Numbered from the stretch's first letter, positions 2,774-14,575 are shown. The stretch is DNA of 64,000 nt from Candidatus Heimdallarchaeum aukensis (GCA_021513695.1 CP084166.1:832001-896000); one strand, 5' to 3'. Program-made: numbers and translations. Notes: generated from the letters alone by a model not told the origin.

Positions 2774-3586
2774 GTGAAAAAAATGAAATTCGATATTATT
2801 ATTCTTGCTGGAAAATCAAAAATGGATGACCCATTATTGAACTATATTTACGAGAGATATAATAAAAAATACGAGTCTAAAGTTTTAATAGAAAATAACG
2901 GTGTTCCTTTTCTTAGACTTATATGTGATGTTTTACGCGAGTGTCCATCAATAGGGGATATTTACATTGCAGGATTGACAGAGAACGATATTGAACTCCC
3001 TTATCCTGTTCACTTTTTAGATGTAGGCAAAGAAACGAGTACAACTGATAAAATAGAATACTGGATTAATAATTATTTATCCAAAAAGAATCCTGTTCCA
3101 AGTTTAGCTTTGATTATGAGCGGAGATATTCCAACAGTTAAGCCCGAACATATTGAAGATTTTATTAGTAAAATAAAAGATAAAGAATGTGACTTCCACT
3201 ATGGAGTAGTAGAACAAACTGATATGGAAAGAGTTTTTCCTGGGAGCAATAGATCTTATGCTAAACTAAAAGATGGTAACTTCTGCGGTTCTGATATATT
3301 TGGAATCAATCCTCAAACAATCCTCAAGTATTCTAAAACTTTTAGAGAACTAACATCAAAGAGAAAAAGTTTCTTGAAGCAAGCTTTCTTCGTCTCTCCT
3401 TTTAAATTCATCAAGATCGTTCTAAGACGAGCTACACTTCAAGAAGTAATTAACATAGCAGAAAAAGCTTTAAAGATGAGTGTTGATATCCAAAGATTAT
3501 CTTATCCAGAGTTAGCAATGGATATAGATAAACCCTTTCAATATGAAATAGTAAAAAGATATTTGGAAAATGAAGAACAAGTGTAA
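2774..3586 (+). CDS. MobA-like nucleotidyltransferase family protein
   Basis: The N-terminal DIIILAGKS segment is a typical NTP-transferase glycine loop. Substrate unknown. Confidence 0.4.
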   Translation: MKKMKFDIIILAGKSKMDDPLLNYIYERYNKKYESKVLIENNGVPFLRLICDVLRECPSIGDIYIAGLTENDIELPYPVHFLDVGKETSTTDKIEYWINNYLSKKNPVPSLALIMSGDIPTVKPEHIEDFISKIKDKECDFHYGVVEQTDMERVFPGSNRSYAKLKDGNFCGSDIFGINPQTILKYSKTFRELTSKRKSFLKQAFFVSPFKFIKIVLRRATLQEVINIAEKALKMSVDIQRLSYPELAMDIDKPFQYEIVKRYLENEEQV

Positions 3587-3649
3587 GAAGTAGAAAAAAT
3601 TAAAATTTCATTTTTCAATTTTGAACAAGAACTGGAAAGAAGATCAGAG

Positions 3650-4210
3650 ATGCCTAAAAATAAATTTGTTCAAACGCTCTTAAAATATGATGAAAAAATT
3701 TCTAAAAAAGTAGCTATTAAGCTAAAATCAATTCAAAAAATACTTGGATTCATTTCTCTTTCAGGAAATTCTCAACCTTGGATTATTTTATCCGCTGTGT
3801 TCTTTATTTTTAATGATTTCTTCACCCGTATTCAGAACCTCTCACAGATTATAGCCGTTCTTTTTTCTGCAAGTATAGTAGGAATAGTTAAAATAATCGT
3901 AAAAAGAGAAAGACCCAATCATTTAATGGTAGAAGAATATATAGCAAAAGTAGATTACTACTCTTTTCCTTCTGGACATAGCACAAGAGCAATTGCTTTC
4001 TCAATTATGATAACTTATTATTATCCTGCTTATGGTTGGATATTTATTTTATGGGGATTAATCATAGCTTTTACCAGAATAGCACTCGATCTTCACTACT
4101 TTTTTGATGTAATAGCAGGAATAATATTAGGGATAATTGGAGGAGTTATAGGAATTTTTGTTTACCAGAAATTAGTAATAGTCTTGAGTGATTACTCTTT
4201 CTTCACCTAG
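3650..4210 (+). CDS. PAP2-family phosphatase (phosphatidic acid phosphatase type 2-like), membrane
   Basis: The three PAP2 motifs are present: KRERPNH (KxxxxxxRP), PSGHS, and RIALDLHYFFD (SRxxxxxHxxxD-like). It has multiple TM helices. Confidence 0.7.
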   Translation: MPKNKFVQTLLKYDEKISKKVAIKLKSIQKILGFISLSGNSQPWIILSAVFFIFNDFFTRIQNLSQIIAVLFSASIVGIVKIIVKRERPNHLMVEEYIAKVDYYSFPSGHSTRAIAFSIMITYYYPAYGWIFILWGLIIAFTRIALDLHYFFDVIAGIILGIIGGVIGIFVYQKLVIVLSDYSFFT

Positions 4211-4275
4211 AAAATTTCACCAAATATAATTAAACAATTAGAGACCTTTATTAACTTAAAAGATTATTACTTCAC

Positions 4276-5205
4276 ATGCTAAAAAGAACAAAAGAATTTA
4301 CTCAAGAAGATTTCCAAGACAAAGATTTGCTAGTTTATGACCCTTTTTACGATAAAAGGATAAATATTCCCATTAGAAGAGGAGGAACAACTTACAATGT
4401 TAGTCTAATAGATATGAATGAAAGTCCTCTTCATCCTGATTGGACTGTTATATGCGTTCACGGTTGGGGTTCAAATGCATTAAATTATCGTTTTGTTCTA
4501 AAGTACCTTTCGTCATATTATAGAGTAATAGCTTACGATCTAAAAGGTCACGGAGAATCTGATAAAGATGAAGACACTTACGATTTAGGATTGTTTACTG
4601 AAGAGTTGGCTCAAATTATTGATCATTTTAACCCCAACAATTTAGTCTTAGTTGGACATAGTATGGGGACAGCAATAGTTATGAATTATGTCTATTTAAA
4701 TCCTGGAAGAATAAAAGCAATGGCACTTGTTTCTTCTTCTGCTGATTTTGGAGAACCTTTACCTCGTATTGTTCCTCTAGTTTTTTCCAAAGTAGATGAA
4801 AGACTCAAGAATGCTTTAATTCACGCTGGAATGGCTCTATGCGTGACCAAAGATTGTCCTAAGATTTTATTAGATATTCTTCGAGAACAAAATAAAAGAA
4901 CCCCCTACGAAGTTTATAGAAAAGCGCTTTTGAATACCATTTATCCGTGGAAAAAAGATGAGGACCTGAATAAAATAAAAGAGCCAACACTAATTATGGT
5001 TGGAGACAAAGATATCGTAACTCCTGTCTCAAATTCTGAAAAACTAAACAAACTAATTCCTAACTCCAGACTTCTTATAATTCCTAATGCTGGACACTCT
5101 GTCCTAATTGAAAAAGGTAAACATGCCGCACTTCTATTGTTAGAGTTTGTAGAATTTATAAGAGAGCAAGAACAAGCAAAACAAAAAGAAGAAAGTAAGG
5201 AATGA
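4276..5205 (+). CDS. alpha/beta-fold hydrolase
   Basis: HGWG oxyanion region, GHSMG nucleophile elbow, C-terminal D and GH(S) catalytic residues. Confidence 0.75.
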   Translation: MLKRTKEFTQEDFQDKDLLVYDPFYDKRINIPIRRGGTTYNVSLIDMNESPLHPDWTVICVHGWGSNALNYRFVLKYLSSYYRVIAYDLKGHGESDKDEDTYDLGLFTEELAQIIDHFNPNNLVLVGHSMGTAIVMNYVYLNPGRIKAMALVSSSADFGEPLPRIVPLVFSKVDERLKNALIHAGMALCVTKDCPKILLDILREQNKRTPYEVYRKALLNTIYPWKKDEDLNKIKEPTLIMVGDKDIVTPVSNSEKLNKLIPNSRLLIIPNAGHSVLIEKGKHAALLLLEFVEFIREQEQAKQKEESKE

Positions 5206-5219
5206 AAAAATAAAAGTAA

Positions 5220-6689
5220 TTATTCTTCTGAATTTATTTTAGGAACAACTTCAATTTTTTCTTTTTCATCTATTACTATAGGTTCTTTGAAACTTATCCA
5301 GTAAGTCTTATTCATTATTGTGTCTACATCTAGTCTGTTTGAAACTTCTTTTGTTCCTAAACTAGCTAATCTTATAATAAACCATTCAAAACTGTATTTA
5401 AAGTTCTTTTTACTCCAAGTAACAATCAGTAAATGATAACAATAGGTAACGAACAACGCTACTAAAAGGGCATATCCTGCTTTTTCATATGGGAGTTTAT
5501 CCCTTACTAGGTCATCGTCTACAAGAAAACTAAACAGCCAACGAGGAAGCAAGGAAAATATCTGTAAAGAAAAAACTGTAAGAGCTACAGTTCCCCATAA
5601 CCGCATCGTTCTGACAAATTTTCTATTTGCAAACTTTTCAGGGTTACCTTTAAATTCTACATAATTTAGCAATAATGCTACCACTCCGATCCAAGCAAAA
5701 AGAAGAAACATGAAATATGACAGATTAGGTCTATTCCAAGTAAAATCAAAACGAACTAATGGATCTTTTGTTATCTCTCCAATAACCAGTAAAATTCCCC
5801 CTAAAATCGCAAATCCAAAACTTGCTATTCCTAAATATTGGGGAAGTTTTTTTGATGGTTTTGGTTTAGCTAGTAGTATCCCTATAATTGAACCAATAAA
5901 TGATACTGATAGGAAGGGGAATAAGGGTTCTAAATCTCCTGCTAAAACAACAAAAATATAGGTTTTAAAGTTGTGATAACTTCGAGCAGTTACTTCATCT
6001 GGCCATTTAGGATAAAGAGGATCAATTAACCTCCAAAGAGGATAACTTAAAGCTAAAATTGCGAAAGCTAATCCGGCATAAATAAGAACATTACGTTTGA
6101 TTTTCAAATATCCTTTGTTTTTAATTAAGAAGTAATGAATTATACCATTGATAATCATACACCAACCAATTGCTTGCAGAGTTTCCATGGTGAAAAAAGC
6201 CCTACCAAATCTTAGCCAAAAATCTTGTACTGTGTGGATAGCCCACGGTGTAGTCCCCTTTGATCTTATTGAAGTGCCAATATATCCGTAATAAAGTAAT
6301 CCTTCTGTTATTGCTCCTACGATTAGTAATCCAACTCCTGTAAGTATTTGTTTGGCTAAAATTTTGTTAGGGTCATAACCTTTTGCTGCTTTTTTAGTCA
6401 TAGCTAAAACATTGACTATAGCAGAAATTAAAAGAAAATACCCTGCCCATCCACTTAAGAATGCTATTAGAAAAACACTAGCAATAATAAGTGGGCTTTT
6501 TTGTAAAAGTTGGTCTATATTAGTTGCCCACGAAATATCGTACATATGTTGTATCTCATGGAGAAGGACCATCATAAAAATCGCCAACCCTCTCTGAAAG
6601 TCTAGAGAGGCTATTCTTTTCATTTGTTTTACTTCTTTCATTTCAACTGATTCTTTTGTTAAAGTTGACATTTTACGCTCTCTTTTCAA
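5220..6689 (-). CDS. polytopic membrane protein, DUF1624 / HGSNAT-like putative acyltransferase
   Basis: The N-terminal RIASLDFQRGLAIFMMV matches the R..S.D..RG.A...M signature of the heparan-alpha-glucosaminide N-acetyltransferase-like family. About 12 TM helices. Confidence 0.45.
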   Translation of the reverse strand: MKRERKMSTLTKESVEMKEVKQMKRIASLDFQRGLAIFMMVLLHEIQHMYDISWATNIDQLLQKSPLIIASVFLIAFLSGWAGYFLLISAIVNVLAMTKKAAKGYDPNKILAKQILTGVGLLIVGAITEGLLYYGYIGTSIRSKGTTPWAIHTVQDFWLRFGRAFFTMETLQAIGWCMIINGIIHYFLIKNKGYLKIKRNVLIYAGLAFAILALSYPLWRLIDPLYPKWPDEVTARSYHNFKTYIFVVLAGDLEPLFPFLSVSFIGSIIGILLAKPKPSKKLPQYLGIASFGFAILGGILLVIGEITKDPLVRFDFTWNRPNLSYFMFLLFAWIGVVALLLNYVEFKGNPEKFANRKFVRTMRLWGTVALTVFSLQIFSLLPRWLFSFLVDDDLVRDKLPYEKAGYALLVALFVTYCYHLLIVTWSKKNFKYSFEWFIIRLASLGTKEVSNRLDVDTIMNKTYWISFKEPIVIDEKEKIEVVPKINSEE

Positions 6690-6823: not shown

Positions 6824-8185
6824 TTATTCTTTTTCATTATCCTTCTCTATAAGTTTAAAGAAACTGGCTTTTTCATTTGGGTAAATTAATGTTGACATTC
6901 CTACTGAAGTTCTGTTAATTATCTCCTTCCCTTCAAGTTTGTTCAAAATTCGAGAGACTGTAGCTTGGGATAAACCTGTTTTTGCAGCAATAGACGCTTG
7001 ATTTTGTCCTGGTTTTTCTATTATTATTTTCATAATCTTCTCCTCCTTCTCATTCAGGAATTTGGAAAGCTTGCCTAAATCGTATTTTTTTGTTTTCTTC
7101 TTTTCTATTTTTGCTACTTCTTCCTTGCTGTTCTGCCAGATAAAGAAAATTATCACTAAACTAGCAATCAAGAAAGAAAAAAGAAAAATAGATACTATCA
7201 TCCAAGGGTTAATATCAGCAACAACATAAGCATGAACTGTACATTCTGTTACTTGTTTGGACAAATTAGATTGGAAGATTATTTTACCCGATCGTTCTCC
7301 AGCTTGAAGTTTTATTTCAATAGTTACTTTTTTTTGTTCCAAAGGAAGAAGATCAATAGTTTTGTATTTAGTTGAAATCCAAGTAACGTTAGCTGTAATG
7401 TTTACCTGTTGATGAACATTCAAGATATTTGTTAAAGTAAAAATCTGTTTAATTTTATTAGCACTTCGAGGAATATATCCTACTTCCCATACCAGCGGAG
7501 AAACTAAAAAGACATTTTCCAAAGATTTGTACTTAATTAATAAAACAAAGTTACTTGAATCAGCGTAGTTCCAAGTAAGTTTTAATTTTTCTCCTATAGT
7601 GCTGATTGTTTGTGGCTCAGGATTAGAAGAGTATAAAGAAAGACTGTTTGTTAGAAAAGTGGTTATTGAAAGAATAGAGACTGATTGGGTGAAAAAAATC
7701 CTAAAATCAAAATTTAAAGTTCCTTGCTCCTCTTTATTTTCGCTTAAAAATACAATATAGAAAGAGTATTTTTCACCTACTGAAAGAGCACGAGGAAATC
7801 TGTAAATTATCTCAGTATATCCACTTGTTAAGTTATAAGAAGATGAAATAAGGAGATTTCTTCCTAAACTATCAGAAACTAGTAATTGAGAGATATTCCC
7901 CCAAATAAAAACCTTATCTGTAATTGAAGTAGCGTTTTCTTTAGTTTGCAAATACTCAATACTTACATTACAACGTGAAGAGAGAAAATAAATATCAATC
8001 ACTATATCAACAGAAACAATTTTAGCAGAATTTACAAGTTTAGGTTTTTTGTAAGACGATATCTCAGGAGAGTAATCATCCTTAAGATTTAAGTTTACAC
8101 CAAATAATGGTTGAAATAATAGTAGCACAAAAACAATTACGAAAAATTTCTTTACAGATGAAGATTTTACCATTTTCTTATTCAC
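6824..8185 (-). CDS. membrane-anchored transcription regulator: signal peptide, ~300-aa extracytoplasmic domain, one TM, C-terminal winged HTH
   Basis: N-terminal hydrophobic signal. Extracellular domain with many N-x-S/T sequons. TM segment WMIVSIFLFSFLIASLVIIFFIW. The C-terminus (...ASIAAKTGLSQATVSRILNKLEGKEIINR) is a MarR/TrmB-like wHTH. Confidence 0.6.
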   Translation of the reverse strand: MNKKMVKSSSVKKFFVIVFVLLLFQPLFGVNLNLKDDYSPEISSYKKPKLVNSAKIVSVDIVIDIYFLSSRCNVSIEYLQTKENATSITDKVFIWGNISQLLVSDSLGRNLLISSSYNLTSGYTEIIYRFPRALSVGEKYSFYIVFLSENKEEQGTLNFDFRIFFTQSVSILSITTFLTNSLSLYSSNPEPQTISTIGEKLKLTWNYADSSNFVLLIKYKSLENVFLVSPLVWEVGYIPRSANKIKQIFTLTNILNVHQQVNITANVTWISTKYKTIDLLPLEQKKVTIEIKLQAGERSGKIIFQSNLSKQVTECTVHAYVVADINPWMIVSIFLFSFLIASLVIIFFIWQNSKEEVAKIEKKKTKKYDLGKLSKFLNEKEEKIMKIIIEKPGQNQASIAAKTGLSQATVSRILNKLEGKEIINRTSVGMSTLIYPNEKASFFKLIEKDNEKE

Positions 8186-8258
8186 TAAGGATTACGCGTT
8201 TTTATTTCTTTTTTATTTCTTATCAAATAAAAAAATAAAAAGAAAAAAGAGGATAATT

Positions 8259-9737
8259 TTAGAATTCAACATCAACATAATCAAAGAATTCAAGATAAGT
8301 CACTTCTAATTCTCCATTTCCGTTGTCATCTATTATTTCTATCCAAAGCCCACCGTTATCATTTGAATAGAGTTCAACATACCAATAACCATATGAAAAG
8401 CTTATCCACATCTCATAATCAGGATTATCTTGAATGAATTGTTGAACTTCAGGCAAAGTTAAAGCAAATTTTTCTACTTCTTGTTCTGTATGGAGAGGAG
8501 GTTCAGGGATATAGTATTCTAAATAGATTACTTCTCCAGTAATGTCATCTATTTCTGCAAAAAGATAAGCTTCCCAAGAGAAAGAAGAGTAAATGTCTAT
8601 ATACCAGTATCCAAAACCATCGTACCAGATGTACATTTCAGTATCTTCCACGTTTGCTAGAAATTCTTGCACTTCTGGTAAAGCTAAAGCAATTGCCTTT
8701 ATCTCTTCTTCTGTGTGAATAGCAGGAGTGGTCATCAGTTTATCTATAATTTCTCCTGTTGTATCGTCAATATATAGTTCGATCCAATCAGTATAGTTGT
8801 AATTATAAAAACCAACTACCCAAGTAACGTTGGTAGAATAATCAATTGGATAACCTATTTCTCCATTTTCAGTGTCTACTGTGTTTATAGTATTAGTTCC
8901 TTCATCTCCATTGTTATCGTTTATTTCTCCTATTTCAGGGACAGTCATATTATCTCCAAATTCCTCATCATAACAGTAAAACCAGTCCATTAAATAAACA
9001 TAAACTTCGTAATCAGGATTGTTTGTAATAAATGTTTGAACATCAGGGTCAGTCAGCGCTATTTCTACAACCTCTTGTGGAGTAAGAGTAGTATTGTATA
9101 TATCCTCTGAAGAATAAACATCTACTATTTCTCCTGTAACATCGTCAATAGTAACAGTACACCATGAAAAGTAATATTCATCATAAAAATCAACAAACCA
9201 GTATTGATAAAAGTCATAGTAGGCATATACTTCATATTCAGGATTTTGCTCTATAAAGTTTTTAACTTCCTCATTCTCTAAAGCAATGGCTATAACTTGC
9301 TCCTCTGTTAGATTAGACTCATCCGAATAATAGAATGCTTCACTTTCAACAACTTCACCAGTATTATCTTCAACAATAGCATAAGCATAACTCATCCAGT
9401 CATCAGCATAAAACTCCACATACCAATAACCAAATCCATCGTAATAACAATATTCTTCCACACTAGAATAATTAGAAAGAAATTCTTGTATTGTAGGATC
9501 GCTTTTAGCTATGTTTTTCACTTGCTCCTCAGTTAATTTGGCAGGTATTGTATCATTATATTCTGTATAATCTGTATTGTCACTAGTATTTTCATCATTT
9601 CCTTGTTCATTATTAATAAAAATAGGTGGTAATTCTTTATTCTTTTTAGCATTTGTTCCAACTACTATTCCAATGGCAATAGAAGAAATGAACAAGCTCA
9701 TGAAAGCAGTAACCAAAATTTTTTGCTTCAAATTCAT
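8259..9737 (-). CDS. secreted or membrane-anchored, highly acidic Tyr/Trp-rich protein with six PepSY-like repeats
   Basis: Signal anchor MNLKQKILVTAFMSLFISSIAIGIVVG. A ~65-aa unit repeats six times, each ending in D(D/N)xTGE(I/V)(I/V), which is PepSY-like. I place the start at the internal ATG (9737) that precedes the signal anchor. The listed ORF extends to 9800. Confidence 0.55.
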   Translation of the reverse strand: MNLKQKILVTAFMSLFISSIAIGIVVGTNAKKNKELPPIFINNEQGNDENTSDNTDYTEYNDTIPAKLTEEQVKNIAKSDPTIQEFLSNYSSVEEYCYYDGFGYWYVEFYADDWMSYAYAIVEDNTGEVVESEAFYYSDESNLTEEQVIAIALENEEVKNFIEQNPEYEVYAYYDFYQYWFVDFYDEYYFSWCTVTIDDVTGEIVDVYSSEDIYNTTLTPQEVVEIALTDPDVQTFITNNPDYEVYVYLMDWFYCYDEEFGDNMTVPEIGEINDNNGDEGTNTINTVDTENGEIGYPIDYSTNVTWVVGFYNYNYTDWIELYIDDTTGEIIDKLMTTPAIHTEEEIKAIALALPEVQEFLANVEDTEMYIWYDGFGYWYIDIYSSFSWEAYLFAEIDDITGEVIYLEYYIPEPPLHTEQEVEKFALTLPEVQQFIQDNPDYEMWISFSYGYWYVELYSNDNGGLWIEIIDDNGNGELEVTYLEFFDYVDVEF

Positions 9738-9863
9738 GTTTTCACCACTATAACATTCTATGAAATAAGACTTATACCTTACTTGAAAGATATGTTTCAA
9801 AAAATGAAATTAAAGATTAGAGAGTAAAAAAATGAAAAAAACATTTATTTTCCTCCAGGCAAA

Positions 9864-10745
9864 TTATCTTTTCAGGCTTTCTTCCGAATTATAAGGCTCT
9901 ATATGGATAACTATATCCTTGAAAACGCCTGTGTCCTCAAGTTTTTTCTTAAGTTTCTCAGCAATAGCATGAGCATCTTTTACTATCATATCTTCATCTA
10001 CAAGAAGATGAAAATCTCCTGTCCATTGATCGTAAATTCTACGTAATCTTACGAGATGAACCTCTTTAACATGCTCACACTCTAAACCTTTTTCTTCAAT
10101 AAGTTTAACTATATCTTCAGGAGGACCTCTATCTAATAAAATAGGTAAACTGTCTTTAGCGATATCATAACCAGTAAGGATGATAACAACGACAATTAAT
10201 AAAGCTAACACAGGGTCTAACCAGTAAACTTCGAAATAAGCTCCAATAATTGCTCCAACAACTAAAAAAGAAGCAATTACATCACTACGAAAGTTTTTGC
10301 TCAATGAAAGTATAGAAGGAGAATTGAGCTTCTTTCCAATAACAAATAAAACATAAGACAAAAAGAACTTACCAACAATACTCGTTAAAGCAACAATAAG
10401 AATAATCCATTCAAAAACTAAAAAATCTTGGTTAATCAGTCTACTAATCGCTTCTTCTGCGATCTGGTAAGAAGAAAAAATCATGAATACAACTATAGCC
10501 AAACTTAGAAGAAATTGGAACTTTTCATGACCAAAAGGATGATCACGGTCAGCAGGCTTCTTACCCATCTTTTCGCCAACACCAGCAAAAATAGACATAA
10601 TAAGATCAAGCAAAGAATCAAAACCATCAGCCAATAAACTAACAGAATTAAACAATATTCCAACGACAATCTTTAGAATCATTAATATTGAATTAATAAA
10701 TAAAGACAATCCAGTAGCAATAAAATTTAAACTAAATTTTGCCAT
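9864..10745 (-). CDS. cation diffusion facilitator (CDF) family divalent-metal efflux transporter
   Basis: Six TM helices (LLADGFDSL in TM2, HPFGHEKF), then a C-terminal cytoplasmic domain. Typical CzcD/ZitB architecture. Confidence 0.75.
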   Translation of the reverse strand: MAKFSLNFIATGLSLFINSILMILKIVVGILFNSVSLLADGFDSLLDLIMSIFAGVGEKMGKKPADRDHPFGHEKFQFLLSLAIVVFMIFSSYQIAEEAISRLINQDFLVFEWIILIVALTSIVGKFFLSYVLFVIGKKLNSPSILSLSKNFRSDVIASFLVVGAIIGAYFEVYWLDPVLALLIVVVIILTGYDIAKDSLPILLDRGPPEDIVKLIEEKGLECEHVKEVHLVRLRRIYDQWTGDFHLLVDEDMIVKDAHAIAEKLKKKLEDTGVFKDIVIHIEPYNSEESLKR

Positions 10746-10978: not shown

Positions 10979-11950
10979 TTATTTAACAGTACTTTTTCCA
11001 ATCCAATTGATGTATTTCTTTAATCCTTCGTCAATAGTTATTTTTGGTTCATAACCAAGTAACTTTTTTGCTTTCGTTATATCTGCTAAAGTTTCAACTG
11101 GGTCAGACTTATATCCCTCTTTATAGATAATTTTTGCTTTTTTACCAATATATCGCTCAATCTTTTTAATTAAAGAAGAAAGAGAAATTGATTTTCCAGT
11201 TCCTAAATTAATGATTTCAAACTTTATTCTTTTTTTCGCCGCCCTCATAAATCCGTCAACAATATCGTCAATATAAGTAAAATCCCGCCTAGTGGACCCA
11301 TCACCATTAACAACGATTGCTTTATCTTGTCTGATTGCATTAACAAATCGAGAGATAGCCATATCAGGCCGTTGATGCGGACCATAGACAGTAAAAAGTC
11401 TTAAGGAGCAAAAATTAATGTCATATAAATAAGAATAAGTTTCACCATATAATTCACAAGAACGTTTACTTACAGCATAAGGAGAAATAGGTTGTGGAGC
11501 CATTGTTTCCTTTAAATATCCTTCATTATTTCCATAAACAGAAGATGAACTGCTAAAAATAAATTGACTAATATCATACATTCTACATAATTCTAATAAA
11601 TTGTTTGTAACCTTTATATTGTTATCAACGTATTTTAGAGGTTCAACAATTGATTCTCTAACTCCTACATTTGCCGCTAAATGAATAATGTTATCAATAT
11701 TATACTGCTTAAAAATAGTCTTGATTTTTGAAATTTCAAGCAAATTTTTTTCAACAAATAAGAAATTATTGCGTTTTTTTAGATTCTTAACTCTATTAGA
11801 TTGAATTAAATGATCATAACTTGCACTTAAATTATCTATTCCAATGATATTATTTTTTGAAAGTAAAAGAGTCTTACATAAATTGAAACCTATGAATCCT
11901 GCACAACCAGTAATAAGAATATTCTTTGCATCAAAATTGTTATTACTCAT
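10979..11950 (-). CDS. NAD-dependent nucleotide-sugar epimerase/dehydratase (SDR, UDP-glucose 4-epimerase-like)
   Basis: TGCAGFIG Rossmann motif and YAVSK catalytic YxxxK. Confidence 0.8.
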   Translation of the reverse strand: MSNNNFDAKNILITGCAGFIGFNLCKTLLLSKNNIIGIDNLSASYDHLIQSNRVKNLKKRNNFLFVEKNLLEISKIKTIFKQYNIDNIIHLAANVGVRESIVEPLKYVDNNIKVTNNLLELCRMYDISQFIFSSSSSVYGNNEGYLKETMAPQPISPYAVSKRSCELYGETYSYLYDINFCSLRLFTVYGPHQRPDMAISRFVNAIRQDKAIVVNGDGSTRRDFTYIDDIVDGFMRAAKKRIKFEIINLGTGKSISLSSLIKKIERYIGKKAKIIYKEGYKSDPVETLADITKAKKLLGYEPKITIDEGLKKYINWIGKSTVK

Positions 11951-12016
11951 TTATCAACAAGAAATTCTACTGTATAAAAATTGTATGCTATATAATCAAA
12001 AAGAATAGAAAATAGA

Positions 12017-13024
12017 CTAAATAACCCCATTTCTAATAAATGAATAGTCACCTACTTTAAGAGAATGAGCTTTTAATCCAATTACATCACTATTTGTTCC
12101 AACAACAGAATCAGAAATAAATACTCTTTCTAGCCTTGAATTTTCTAATATAACAGAATTTTTAATTTCACTGTTTTCTACCTTAACCCCTTTCTCTATC
12201 ATTACATAAGGGCCAATAGTAGATGAGTGAATTTCGCAGTCTTCAGCAATATATACAGGTGGAATTATGCTAGAATTCGTGACATTTCCAAGCACTTTAT
12301 GAGTTTTTTCATTTAAATAGTGTTTATTCACCTCTAATAAATCTTCAGGATACCCAATATCTAACCTCCAACCATGTATTTTTGAAACCTTAACTCGATA
12401 ATTATTGTCAACTAATTTTTGTATTGCATCTGTGAGCTCATATTCTCCACGAGCTGAAGGCTGTAACCCAGATGTCATCTGAAATATTATTGGAGAAAAA
12501 ACATAGAAACCTGAAATAACATAGTTACTCTTAGGGGTTTTTGGTTTTTCTTCAACAGATATAACATTATCACTATCATCTATCTCAACAACACCAAATC
12601 GTTGAGGATTTTCATGCTTTTCAATGTGTAAAGTTGCAGCAGCATTTGAAGAAATATGAAGATCAATAACTTTTTTCAAGTTTGCAGAAAATAGATTATC
12701 ACCTAATAAAACAACAAAGTCTCTTGATATTTTGTCTTCTATTAGATTTACGGCTGCAGCTAAACCATGAGCTTGATTTGTGTGCTGAATTACATAAGAA
12801 ATGTTCATTCCTAAATCTTGTCCATTCTTGAAATAATCAATAATTGCATTTCTTTGATAACCAACAACTATAATAATATCATTAATATCTAACATATCAC
12901 GCATGTATTCAATTGAGCGATGCAAGATAGGTTTTCCTGCGACTGGTAAAAGATGTTTTGGTCTAAAACTTGTAAAGGGTAGTAAGCGACTTCCATGGCC
13001 TGCTGCTAAAATAACTCCTTTCAT
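12017..13024 (-). CDS. sugar-1-phosphate nucleotidyltransferase with C-terminal left-handed beta-helix
   Basis: The N-terminal GVILAAGHGSRLLPFT..PKHLLPVAGKPIL is the NTP-transferase signature. The C-terminal hexapeptide-like repeats suggest a GlmU/ST0452-like bifunctional type. Confidence 0.75.
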   Translation of the reverse strand: MKGVILAAGHGSRLLPFTSFRPKHLLPVAGKPILHRSIEYMRDMLDINDIIIVVGYQRNAIIDYFKNGQDLGMNISYVIQHTNQAHGLAAAVNLIEDKISRDFVVLLGDNLFSANLKKVIDLHISSNAAATLHIEKHENPQRFGVVEIDDSDNVISVEEKPKTPKSNYVISGFYVFSPIIFQMTSGLQPSARGEYELTDAIQKLVDNNYRVKVSKIHGWRLDIGYPEDLLEVNKHYLNEKTHKVLGNVTNSSIIPPVYIAEDCEIHSSTIGPYVMIEKGVKVENSEIKNSVILENSRLERVFISDSVVGTNSDVIGLKAHSLKVGDYSFIRNGVI

Positions 13025-13837
13025 TTTGTAACTCCATACTTTATGTAATATAAAAACTATTCTTTTTGAATTTGTTGTTTAAAAACCAACATAATTTAGA
13101 TAATAAATATGAATAAAACAAACAGTTATTAATTTATATAATACTTGGCATTTATATCGGCATTGAATAATAAAAATATATTAAGGCAAAGGAAATTTCT
13201 GAACGAAAATTCTATTTTGATAATCAATGTTATTAAAAACAATCTTTCAACTTACTTAAATATAAGTTCATAAATTTTAAGTGTTCAAATTTTGTTTGAG
13301 AATTCATTTTTTGTTATTTTAATAAAACTAACTATACATAGATATAGTAGGCATGTCCAAAAATTAATTATTATTAATGTAGAGAGTATATGTAAGAATT
13401 ATGACACACTTCCAGATTATAGACCTCACAAAGAAAAAGAATTTATAATCATTAATAGACTTTTCTTAAGAAACTTGTAAAAGAAAAAAAATTGAAAGTA
13501 AAAGAGGAAGAAAAAGAATAAAGAAAAAGAGATGCAGAGTAATGCTAACCTTAGTGATTATTGTAAGAATAGAAAAAATAGTTTGTAGAAAATTAGAAGA
13601 AAAATTGTCTCTTTGAGATTTTTTGATAATGGAGTGATAGATGACGAATATTTCTTTAAAATCTACTTTCGCACTGTATGAAGATTGGGAGACAGTAAGG
13701 TGTTAGAGCAATGGATAATAATGAGTACTATTTTCAATAATTCGCTTAATATTTTAGGTTTATAATTACCATATAAAACACAGATATCCTACAGAAGAGA
13801 CAAGCAGTATATATAAAAGACTTAAAAAACACTCATA

Positions 13838-14575
13838 TCAGTTAAATACATTTTTCATTTTATAGAATATCCTTCTCGGAATCAAACTTAATTGATATAA
13901 AATCATTGATGGAATAAAATTTCTTAATTTTATCGAGGATGACTCATTTTGATATATAGCTTTCATTTCTATTTCTTTAATTTTTGCATTAATTAAACTT
14001 AATTCAAAAAGCATGCTATTCTCAAAAGTATAACCAGCATTCAGCTTTTCATGTCTAATCTTTTTAAATGTTTCTTTTTTCATTGCTGTATAACCATTTT
14101 GGGCATCATTCACATTCCAATAACCTGTTGTAATTTTAGTTATCCATGTAAGAATTTTATTTCCAATAAATCGATATTTTGGCATTTGCTCCCTCAATTT
14201 CTTATTTGACATTCTATTTCCTTTAGCAAAATCATAATCTTCATCTATAAGAGGATCCAAAAACTTGGGTAAAAGTTCAGCTTTCATTTGTCCATCACCG
14301 TCTATACGAACAAAAATGTCAGCTCCTAATTCTTCACCTAACAAGAAGCCATTTACAGTGGATTTACCAACACCTTGGTTGGTTTCATGGACAATAATAT
14401 GTAATCTCTCTTCTTTGATATTTTTCAATATCTTCAATGTATTATCTGTACTTTTATCATCAATAACAATAATAAAATCTATAAATTCTGGAATCTCTTT
14501 GATTACTTCTTCGATGTGATCCTCTTCATTATATACTGGTATTACTAGACATATTTTCTTATTTTTATACAACAC
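13838..14575 (-). CDS. family-2 glycosyltransferase (Dol-P-sugar synthase-like, soluble)
   Basis: ICLVIPVYNEE...DDKSTDNT and DGDGQ (DxD) motifs. No C-terminal TM. Confidence 0.75.
   Translation of the reverse strand: MLYKNKKICLVIPVYNEEDHIEEVIKEIPEFIDFIIVIDDKSTDNTLKILKNIKEERLHIIVHETNQGVGKSTVNGFLLGEELGADIFVRIDGDGQMKAELLPKFLDPLIDEDYDFAKGNRMSNKKLREQMPKYRFIGNKILTWITKITTGYWNVNDAQNGYTAMKKETFKKIRHEKLNAGYTFENSMLFELSLINAKIKEIEMKAIYQNESSSIKLRNFIPSMILYQLSLIPRRIFYKMKNVFN

Follow-up and report, generated by a model that had tools for sequence, protein, structure and literature searches.

Here we describe a pair of genes, one encoding a polyanionic protein with five PepSY domains and the other a membrane-bound winged helix-turn-helix (wHTH) regulator, which on balance we take to form a two-gene, autoregulated envelope-signalling cassette limited to the Heimdall-group Asgard archaea, with the PepSY protein modulating the regulator. 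The pair was analysed in a 64 kb stretch of Candidatus Heimdallarchaeum DNA (the window), where the original prediction had placed it in a three-gene metal module with a CDF cation-efflux transporter. A joint role for the repeat protein and the membrane regulator is supported, because their genes are adjacent and co-oriented at 17 of 19 informative loci. Judged by gene neighbourhoods, the CDF exporter is a chance neighbour outside this conserved unit.

ORF calling confirmed three co-directional genes on the minus strand of the window, which carries all of the features given below, with open frames at 6824-8185, 8259-9800 and 9864-10745. The regulator gene (6824..8185) encodes 453 aa from GTG 8185, and its start is probably ATG 8173, giving 449 aa as in the ortholog P0001 (449 aa, 95% identical), named a winged helix-turn-helix transcriptional regulator in the database. 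The PepSY gene (8259..9737; 492 aa) almost certainly begins at ATG 9737 rather than TTG 9800, since a Shine-Dalgarno-like GGTGA (9742..9746) lies 4 nt upstream, the database protein P0005, with 100% identity to the window protein, has a length of 492 aa, and TTG 9800 falls within the candidate operator. With this start the gap between the CDF stop codon and the PepSY gene is therefore 126 bp, compared with about 63 bp from TTG 9800, so that the short spacing of 60-75 bp originally reported for these two genes is lost. The CDF gene itself (9864..10745) was correctly recognised: Pfam and NCBIfam models match the protein over its full length, including the transmembrane and cytoplasmic dimerisation domains (TIGR01297, 1e-64, 218 bits against a cut-off of 82; Cation_efflux, PF01545, 3e-43; ZT_dimer, PF16916, 1e-16), and none of the CDF equivalog models (MntE, FieF, MamM and others) reaches its cut-off.

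The PepSY protein is, as had been noted, rich in Tyr, Trp, Asp and Glu. It has a net charge of -91/-92, with 21% D+E and 13% Y+W, and of the 42 ORFs in the window that reach 200 aa it ranks highest for both acidity and aromatic content. The same composition is found throughout its family, in which net charge ranges from -63 to -121, K+R from 1 to 4.5% and Y+W from 9 to 16%. Family N-termini combine a basic n-region with an h-region of about 20 residues, often followed by an AFSA|N-like site, which predicts an extracytoplasmic location; in the window protein the hydrophobic segment (residues about 3-32; 9642..9731) could either be cleaved off as a signal peptide or stay in place as an anchor, making the protein secreted or membrane-anchored.

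Six repeats had been claimed, but the AF2 model and a unit HMM both resolve five, the typical number across the family. Repeat 1 (residues 66-137; 9327..9542; unit HMM E = 1e-27) is modelled as helices H70-78 and H81-89 with four strands, and is followed by repeat 2 (residues 141-212; 9102..9317; E = 2e-29), repeat 3 (residues 216-337; 8727..9092), repeat 4 (residues 339-411; 8505..8723; E = 1e-30) and repeat 5 (residues 414-487; 8277..8498; E = 3.5e-25), the last two also seen in the model. An acidic, disordered stretch of about 50 aa (residues about 251-302; 8832-8987), with pLDDT below 50 over residues 252-301, is inserted into repeat 3, and it is this insert that carries the look-alike motif DTENGE taken for the sixth repeat.

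Searched as a whole, the protein has no Pfam PepSY match at E <= 1, and its PepSY identity was therefore assessed by repeat, by fold and by profile. With the insert removed, repeat 3 matches Pfam PepSY over profile positions 2-59 of 60 (E = 3.7e-5; 24.4 bits, gathering score 24). Repeat 2 aligns weakly from end to end (2-59 of 60, E = 0.96), the repeat consensus likewise gives only a weak end-to-end alignment with PF03413, and 7 of 23 family members have sub-threshold matches (best E = 0.0027). The modelled fold, a helix on a four-stranded antiparallel sheet, is that of YpeB and the peptidase propeptides. Furthermore, a family profile run against 1.84 billion proteins reached P0103 (E = 5.4e-7), P0111 (2.7e-6) and P0136 (2.1e-4), which Pfam scores as PepSY at 113, 32 and 69 bits, so that the repeat family is continuous with accepted PepSY proteins. 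The fold and this continuity uphold the assignment as PepSY-like, in the form of a diverged PepSY array. Compared with YpeB and the M4/M36 peptidase propeptides, the founding PepSY members, composition and context differ, and there is no peptidase or SleB-like partner here. Bacterial relatives join PepSY with SLH cell-wall anchors, and one relative of 3,762 aa (P0038) carries about 38 PepSY-like repeats without a partner.

The second protein has the layout that had been proposed for it, a single membrane pass with a large extracytoplasmic domain and a cytoplasmic C-terminal wHTH. Its signal-peptide-like N-terminus (residues 1-30; 8096..8185) consists of a Lys-rich n-region and a hydrophobic FFVIVFVLLLF, with cleavage only of the predicted type; residues 8-23 are helical in an AF2 model of moderate quality only (pLDDT 70, pTM 0.38). 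An all-beta ectodomain of about 300 aa follows (residues about 31-326; 7208..8095), built of Ig-like sandwich domains of which one is PapD/ASH/MSP-like. The single TM helix (residues about 327-349; 7139..7207; Kyte-Doolittle maximum 2.93) is part of a long helix in the model (residues 327-361), and the Lys-rich segment after it places the C-terminal side in the cytoplasm by the positive-inside rule. After a linker of about 25 residues comes the wHTH (residues about 377-436; 6878..7057), with the recognition helix SQATVSR and the wing motif GMS. Over residues 377-434 Pfam reports HTH_24 (1e-10), MarR (5e-10) and DUF7343 (PF24034; 31.9 bits, gathering score 27.6); DUF7343 is also annotated in the orthologs and is unmentioned in the searchable literature. 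The description of the ectodomain as glycosylation-sequon-rich does not hold: it has 7 sequons where shuffles give 4.1 +/- 1.8, a difference that is not significant (P = 0.09).

Homology within the regulator family spans the full protein length, and the wHTH is present in every member of the ectodomain family. The recognition helix is kept as SK[AS]T[LV]SR, its residues and those of the wing being invariant or nearly so family-wide, and the nearest structures to the wHTH are DNA-binding repressors. Several of the sequons keep their positions across orthologs. The regulator does not belong to the MarR family proper, whose members are soluble proteins of ~140-150 aa with helices flanking the wHTH as dimer interface: both Pfam and the AF2 model give the wHTH core only, with the MarR-type dimerisation helices absent. 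Nor is it of the ToxR/CadC type, as its wHTH is C-terminal and MarR/ArsR-like, its ectodomain comes first, after a signal peptide, and Trans_reg_C has no match among its 27 Pfam hits. A single chain that joins a DNA-binding domain to at least one predicted TM region defines the transmembrane transcription regulators (TTRs; PMC10269533), and the protein fits that class.

A candidate binding site for the regulator lies in front of the PepSY gene. Across 192 kb of non-redundant loci, the family palindrome core GTTTCA-N5-TGAAAC has 8 exact matches against 0.02 expected, and 8 of 8 sit upstream of a PepSY gene, 55-100 nt before its ATG. In the window the candidate operator (9793..9811) reads AATTTCA-TTTTT-TGAAACA, a degenerate form of TGTTTCA-N5-TGAAACA with 2 mismatches; it is orthologous to the exact palindromes at other loci and overlapped by a perfect palindrome TTGAAA-N6-TTTCAA (9783-9800), and the relaxed palindrome has no second copy in the 64 kb. 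The promoter, which lies past the CDF stop codon, runs in the order palindrome, BRE/TATA, third half-site, Shine-Dalgarno sequence and ATG. The TATA-like box GGTATAAG (9771..9778) aligns with AAAG-TTATATAGG of the orthologous promoters, the third half-site TATTTCAT (9760..9767; TTGTTTCAC at other loci) lies directly 3' of it, and this whole arrangement, the GGTGA included, aligns across loci whose proteins are just 26-50% identical. Two further paired loci (L009, L024) carry a variant palindrome, GGTTCA-N7-TGAACC, and the unpaired loci L021 and L023, with PepSY-like relatives, have none; the deep-branching L005-L007 group keeps the gene pair, yet shows no clear palindrome. A K to Q change in the recognition helix is restricted to the lineage of the window and its sister species Ca. 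H. endolithica, in which two of three half-sites also carry G to A; this coincidence is a single evolutionary event. A different factor could bind the candidate operator.

Throughout the Heimdall/Hod lineages the PepSY gene precedes the regulator gene at the 17 paired loci, and this order is kept down to about 25% protein identity while all flanking genes change, the flanks being otherwise unrelated between loci. The gap between the two genes is only 9 bp in L008, the open frames overlap in L018, and divergence in the one protein tracks that in the other (r = 0.98 over 91 pairwise comparisons). Co-transcription is putative, as in the window the stretch between the two genes contains T-rich runs at which transcription could end.

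Both architectures had been called uncharacterised, which was overstated, since TTRs are a described and widespread class, archaea included (PMC10269533), and acidic tandem-PepSY membrane proteins encoded beside signalling genes are known in bacteria (UipA-UipRS, DbfQ-DbfRS). The pairing of these two families is undescribed in the literature searchable here. Its nearest parallels are DbfQ-DbfRS of Vibrio cholerae and related modules such as PA2658/PA2659-BqsRS, in which, as here, a gene for an extracytoplasmic PepSY protein lies immediately upstream of a membrane signal transducer in the same orientation; DbfQ binds the sensory domain of DbfS, and PepSY genes neighbour two-component systems with an enrichment of more than 60-fold (PMC12714742). 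Also shared are the maintenance of the association across lineages and, as proposed here, a promoter under the pathway's own control. The partner, however, is a one-component TM wHTH regulator instead of a histidine kinase and response regulator, genes for neither of which are conserved in the flanks of the pair, and the PepSY protein is archaeal, five-domain, polyanionic and aromatic-rich, whereas proteins of the DbfQ type have a single domain and about 12 kDa. DbfQ is not polyanionic, and the signal for its system is envelope stress, not a defined metal.

Acidic metal-binding PepSY proteins are represented by UipA of Microbacterium and LanP of Methylobacillus, which bind U/Fe or lanthanides, and the uipA gene adjoins the two-component system UipRS. 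Their sequence kinship to the Asgard protein is very remote, at superfamily level only, and the likeness lies in a conserved polyanionic composition read from sequence; the crystallised part of UipA is a tandem and LanP has two PepSY domains, compared with five here. We know of no report of aromatic richness for UipA or LanP.

With ToxR, CadC and TcpP the regulator shares a one-component, single-pass design, as do 56% of TTRs, with a DNA-binding domain expected to act from the membrane; Asgard archaea are unmentioned in the text of the TTR census (PMC10269533). ToxR and CadC are type-II proteins with an N-terminal OmpR-type wHTH, whereas in the Asgard regulator, a type-I protein, a signal peptide of the cleavable type precedes the ectodomain and the wHTH, of MarR/ArsR type, comes last. 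Like it, ToxR is encoded together with an extracytoplasmic partner, ToxS. Among archaea, the membrane-bound transcription factors that have been studied are ArnR and ArnR1 of Sulfolobus acidocaldarius, likewise membrane-anchored and one-component, which bind defined promoter boxes; in ArnR, however, the HTH is N-terminal, the HAMP-like and sensing domains are cytoplasmic and two TM helices form the C-terminal part, and the protein lacks a large extracytoplasmic domain and a PepSY partner (PMC6396743).

Taken as a signalling cassette, the pair would work as follows. The PepSY protein, secreted or membrane-anchored, would contact the Ig-like ectodomain of the type-I regulator and set its activity, by analogy with the action of DbfQ on the sensor kinase DbfS. 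Behind the TM helix and the short basic linker, the wHTH, dimerised at the membrane, would bind the palindrome GTTTCA-N5-TGAAAC upstream of BRE/TATA and also the third half-site just past TATA, both in the cassette's own promoter. The signal may be the ligand state of the PepSY protein, and a cation or polycation would be the likeliest ligand because the polyanionic surface is conserved; a cationic signal is thus plausible.

The regulator might instead sense through its Ig-like ectodomain or the membrane, with the PepSY protein as the principal product under its control; as a polyanionic component of the envelope, that protein would buffer cations or help to organise the cell surface, and the two would have no physical partnership. 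Because the operator stands at the PepSY promoter, binding of the regulator to it would make the PepSY protein a regulated product for certain; in addition, partnerless many-repeat relatives exist (L021, L023, P0038) and bacterial relatives carry SLH anchors. The strict PepSY-first adjacency amid changing flanks argues, however, for more than a regulator-target relation, and direct PepSY-sensor binding is the bacterial precedent, which leaves this account unlikely. Regulated proteolysis, in which the PepSY array would act as peptidase inhibitor or shield, guarding the ectodomain from a site-1 protease until a signal led to intramembrane cleavage and freed the wHTH for its operator, is somewhat less likely still. 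No protease gene is conserved beside the pair, and the linker of about 25 residues in the window would let the wHTH reach DNA from the membrane, much as other TTRs do. Extreme acidity is also, to our knowledge, foreign to propeptide-type PepSY domains.

The predicted metal module, with the PepSY protein sensing or buffering extracellular metal, the regulator transducing and the CDF exporter as co-regulated output, has in its favour a genuine CDF protein, a polyanionic PepSY protein, the metal-binding bacterial examples and the adjacency of three co-directional genes at the window locus and at that of Ca. H. endolithica (L010). These two loci, however, count as one event, since they come from one genus and are 94-95% identical, and at the other 17 informative loci the 5-7 kb around the pair contain no CDF gene, so that operon conservation fails for the module. 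Furthermore, the PepSY gene owns its conserved promoter and operator beyond the CDF stop codon, directly after which lie two terminator-like T7 runs (9826..9841), and upstream of the CDF gene there is no palindrome with 2 or fewer mismatches. Oligo-T runs act as transcription terminators in archaea. We therefore consider the module improbable, and with the CDF link lost the inference of metal rests only on conserved acidity and the UipA and LanP precedents. Least probable of all is a wHTH serving protein contacts or membrane organisation, with the palindrome belonging to another factor: the missing dimerisation helices would suit it, but the near-invariant recognition helix and wing, the structural resemblance to DNA-binding repressors and the presence of the palindrome at paired and not at unpaired loci speak against it.

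In its most specific form, the cassette may be a lineage-specific one-component trans-envelope system, in which five PepSY domains make up a polyanionic co-sensor for the Ig-like ectodomain, which it binds, of a wHTH regulator that is a type-I protein and acts from the membrane on GTTTCA-N5-TGAAAC and the post-TATA half-site; we hold this version tentatively, as a serious possibility that falls somewhat short of probable. The defined operator makes the cassette reading directly testable. If it is true, the PepSY-sensor partnership, so far known only from descriptions of bacterial two-component systems, would be a cross-domain principle with varied output modules, and the regulator would be the first operator-defined membrane-bound transcription factor from the archaeal lineage closest to eukaryotes.

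Three co-directional minus-strand open reading frames, as originally predicted, encode a CDF cation-efflux transporter (9864-10745, minus strand), a 492-residue repeat protein (8259-9737, minus strand; hereafter the PepSY protein) and a transmembrane winged-helix (wHTH) regulator (6824-8185, minus strand), the last two separated by a T-rich spacer of 73 bp. Database comparisons gave a Ca. H. aukensis protein of 100% identity for the PepSY protein and a Ca. H. endolithica protein of 95% identity for the regulator; no paralog of either was found elsewhere in the 64 kb window. The transporter is bona fide, with matches to Cation_efflux (3e-43), ZT_dimer (1e-16) and TIGR01297 (218 bits); no metal-specific equivalog model reached its cut-off, so no metal was assigned. 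Directly downstream of the regulator gene, 5220-6689 (minus strand) encodes a multi-pass membrane protein of 489 residues with a weak match, below the cut-off (E = 2.7e-4), to the HGSNAT catalytic (acyltransferase-3-like) domain; this gene is not kept beside the pair in other loci. Upstream of the CDF gene, 10979-14575 (minus strand) carries a sugar-nucleotide and glycosylation cluster (NAD-dependent epimerase/dehydratase, nucleotidyl transferase with a hexapeptide domain, likely glycosyltransferase), which is unrelated to the gene pair and may bear on surface glycosylation.

To establish which of these genes belong together, related loci were gathered by looking up exact proteins and by scanning species-representative genomes. 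Each was scored with two HMMs, one for the repeat unit and one for the regulator ectodomain, and by phmmer with the CDF protein of the window as query. The PepSY gene was followed directly by the regulator gene on the same strand in 17 of the 19 informative non-duplicate loci, a count that corresponds to somewhat fewer effective independent observations since several loci (L012-L014) are close relatives of one another. By record name (Heimdallarchaeota, Hodarchaeota, "Promethearchaeota") all loci are of Heimdall-group lineages. The paired regulators, of ~440-490 residues, have a common architecture of signal peptide, ectodomain, one transmembrane helix and cytoplasmic wHTH; this layout is kept in L008/L022, counted among the 17, where the ectodomain is too diverged for the HMM. 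The gap between the two genes ranges from overlapping open frames (L018) through 9 bp (L008) to ~200 bp. The regulator ectodomain family is small (~14 clusters at 90% identity) and was never found without the wHTH. Furthermore, the pairwise identities of the two proteins are correlated across 14 loci (r = 0.98), and the PepSY protein and the regulator have therefore been inherited as a unit. We consider the two-gene module very probably real. In the two unpaired loci, L021 and L023, the relatives of the repeat protein are more distant.

The genes flanking the pair differ everywhere (NIPA, PEMT, IMPDH, flavin reductase, a PadR gene with a 707-residue protein of unknown function). A CDF gene lies beside the pair only in the window and in L010, from Ca. 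H. endolithica; at 94-95% identity within one genus, these are effectively one event. Also, three loci of a deep group, L005, L006 and L007 (~2900-5500 in each), share a broader conserved setting that is missing from the Heimdallarchaeum locus: a divergent conserved PadR-family gene and an unknown protein of 707-715 residues precede the pair, and a tRNA-deacylase-like gene and then a giant NosD/beta-helix protein follow it.

The repeats of the PepSY protein had been described as six and PepSY-like. Their assignment to the PepSY superfamily was upheld by fold and profile, as a diverged branch, although Pfam PepSY did not match the whole protein. An AlphaFold2 model built from 23 family members was confident across the repeats (pLDDT of at least 90) and revealed five units, each of two short helices and a four-stranded sheet; five is the norm across the family. 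The supposed sixth is a look-alike DTENGE within a disordered insert of repeat 3 (8832-8987, minus strand), an acidic, Asn/Thr/Gly-rich stretch of ~50 residues that separates strand 1 from strands 2-4. The length of the inserts at this point varies over the family, and the deep group has its inserts in other repeats instead. Once the insert was taken out, repeat 3 aligned with Pfam PepSY from end to end and scored 24.4 bits (gathering score, 24), and sub-threshold PepSY matches were present in 7 of 23 relatives. When the family profile was run exhaustively with HMMER against 1.84 billion representatives, only 116 proteins reached E <= 1e-3; three of the 20 matches sampled were accepted PepSY proteins (E = 5e-7, 3e-6 and 2e-4). 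On the basis of the modelled fold, the repeat-3 match and these profile matches, the repeats form a divergent branch within the PepSY superfamily. Their D-x-TGE motif is an ordinary PepSY hairpin signature and does not count as evidence of metal binding. The best match to the family profile, P0038, is encoded outside the window; it is a giant surface-protein relative of 3,762 residues with ~38 tandem PepSY-like units, and is not especially acidic (D+E 12.8%, K+R 9.1%).

When a repeat-unit profile was compared with PDB sequences, only TAL-effector repeats were returned, with spurious whole-sequence E-values of 6e-6. This apparent homology was rejected as a summation artefact of ~0-1 bit per stretch, arising from the resemblance of the helix-1 motif LTxEEVxAIA (e.g., residues 68-80) to the TAL-effector repeat start LTPEQVVAIAS, a likeness that should serve as a warning for automated annotation.

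The PepSY protein is strongly polyanionic, with a net charge of -92, 21% D+E, 2.4% K+R and 13% Y+W, compared with window medians of 11.5% for D+E and 6.8% for Y+W. Acidity and aromatic content persist across all the family, even at ~25% identity (net charge -63 to -121; a wider set is similar). Because of this retention, and because the composition of the regulator ectodomain is ordinary, the polyanionic character is a selected property of the PepSY protein. At the N-terminus a basic n-region leads into an h-region of ~20 residues, in many cases with an AFSA|N-like site after it; the repeats are thus predicted to lie outside the cell, which fits either a cleaved or an anchored protein. A metal function for this protein is, for the present, hypothetical.

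Direct reading of the intergenic sequences, in which a palindrome was seen first in the window and the full arrangement then in the orthologous loci, revealed a conserved order upstream of the PepSY gene: TGTTTCA-N5-TGAAACA, a spacer of ~15 nt, a purine-rich element with the TATA box (AAAG-TTATATAGG), a third half-site (TTGTTTCAC), a spacer of ~12 nt, GGTGA and, 4 nt further, ATG. Within 192 kb of non-redundant loci there are 8 copies of the core GTTTCA-N5-TGAAAC, where 0.02 would be expected, and all 8 lie 55-100 nt upstream of a PepSY start codon; in L011 the palindrome has one mismatch. Since the intergenic DNA can be aligned between genomes whose proteins are only 26-50% identical, implying constraint, the region is probably a functional promoter, with a candidate site for a dimeric DNA-binding protein straddling the TATA box. 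The window and L010 carry a degenerate candidate operator (9793-9811, minus strand), AATTTCA-N5-TGAAACA with the post-TATA half-site TATTTCAT, which is the sole relaxed palindrome match in the whole 64 kb. The palindrome is absent from the unpaired loci, and no clear palindrome was found upstream of the PepSY gene in the deep group. Two independent paired loci, L009 (~5898-5920) and L024 (57-79), have a second operator class, GGTTCA-N7-TGAACC, differing in arm sequence and spacer; their post-TATA half-site TTGTTTCAG is unchanged, and the recognition helix, shown for L009, is SKSTVSRAV. Other matches in the window with two mismatches, at 5025, 7769, 25115 and 26668, considered as possible regulon members, were treated as chance; those at 7769, 25115 and 26668 lie within open reading frames. 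A scan for sigma-70 promoters and intrinsic terminators fell below shuffle expectation and was set aside, the model not being applicable to archaea.

This layout has consequences for annotation. The PepSY gene almost certainly starts at ATG 9737; the TTG at 9800 falls within the operator. Two T7 runs come after the CDF stop codon, and the cassette is served by a separate promoter located downstream of that stop, so that the CDF gene is most readily read as a separate transcription unit; it should not be assigned to the regulon on adjacency alone.

The natural candidate to bind the operator is the wHTH encoded in the cassette itself. Its recognition helix, SK[AS]T[LV]SR, and GMS wing are nearly invariant in the family. 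We judge it somewhat likelier than otherwise that the regulator binds there and controls its own cassette. Only in the genus Heimdallarchaeum (window and L010) is SKATVSR changed to SQATVSR (residue ~407, window ~6965-6967), and in the same two loci two of the three operator half-sites (9760-9811 in the window) have changed from GTTTCA to ATTTCA. Lysine usually contacts G and glutamine A, and the paired change may reflect protein-DNA covariation; as a single event it is only suggestive. The AlphaFold2 model of the regulator was of moderate confidence (pLDDT 70), and its ectodomain did not bear out the predicted richness in N-glycosylation sequons, the enrichment not being significant.

We propose that the cassette would function as an autoregulated two-gene envelope-signalling unit, in which the polyanionic penta-PepSY protein would bind to the Ig-like ectodomain and convey its ligand state, plausibly that of a cation or polycation, to a regulator that would act on DNA from the membrane. 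Both the contact and the cationic ligand are proposed by analogy. The strongest mechanistic precedent for a PepSY partner, a bacterial one, is DbfQ, a PepSY protein of the periplasm whose gene lies directly upstream of dbfRS and which binds the sensory domain of the DbfS kinase and sets its output; PepSY genes adjoin two-component systems >60 times more often than by chance (PMC12714742). UipA, as described in two reviews, spans the membrane once, has tandem PepSY domains with an acidic uranyl/iron-binding face, and adjoins the two-component system UipRS; in LanP, lanthanides are bound by an acidic core. On these grounds direct contact with the ectodomain is a tentative but serious possibility, and a cationic signal is distinctly more doubtful. 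Alternatively, the PepSY protein might act as a protease shield in a scheme of regulated proteolysis, or might merely be a regulated product of the system, an output with no part in sensing. Both the synteny and the PepSY gene's own promoter weigh against the three-gene metal module of the original prediction, in which the transporter would join the pair.

The kinds of component in the proposed signalling unit are already known: the PepSY superfamily, MarR/ArsR-type wHTH domains, PepSY-sensor modules and transmembrane regulators, the last being documented as widespread (1,384 archaeal examples, ~4 per genome, 56% single-pass; PMC10269533). Unlike ToxR/CadC and the archaeal ArnR/ArnR1, in which the DNA-binding domain is N-terminal, the regulator described here has a C-terminal wHTH, and its Ig-like ectodomain contrasts with ArnR, which lacks a large external domain. 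What is new is the combination of a five-domain polyanionic PepSY protein with a one-component type-I membrane wHTH regulator and a candidate operator, confined to Heimdall-group Asgard archaea. The literature searched contained no mention of DUF7343, the family matched by the wHTH, and no paper describing the pair.

If the PepSY protein modulates the regulator, the tuning of a membrane sensor by a PepSY accessory protein, a principle recently recognised in bacteria, would hold for archaea and for one-component regulators as well, and the cassette would add a membrane-tethered transcription factor of type-I topology, which has been little studied in prokaryotes. To our knowledge, experiments have hardly touched signal transduction in the Asgard archaea. 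With two genes, one promoter and a sharply defined candidate operator, the cassette could be examined in vitro or in a heterologous host, with no need to culture the organism, and its main value is as a compact entry point into Asgard signal transduction.
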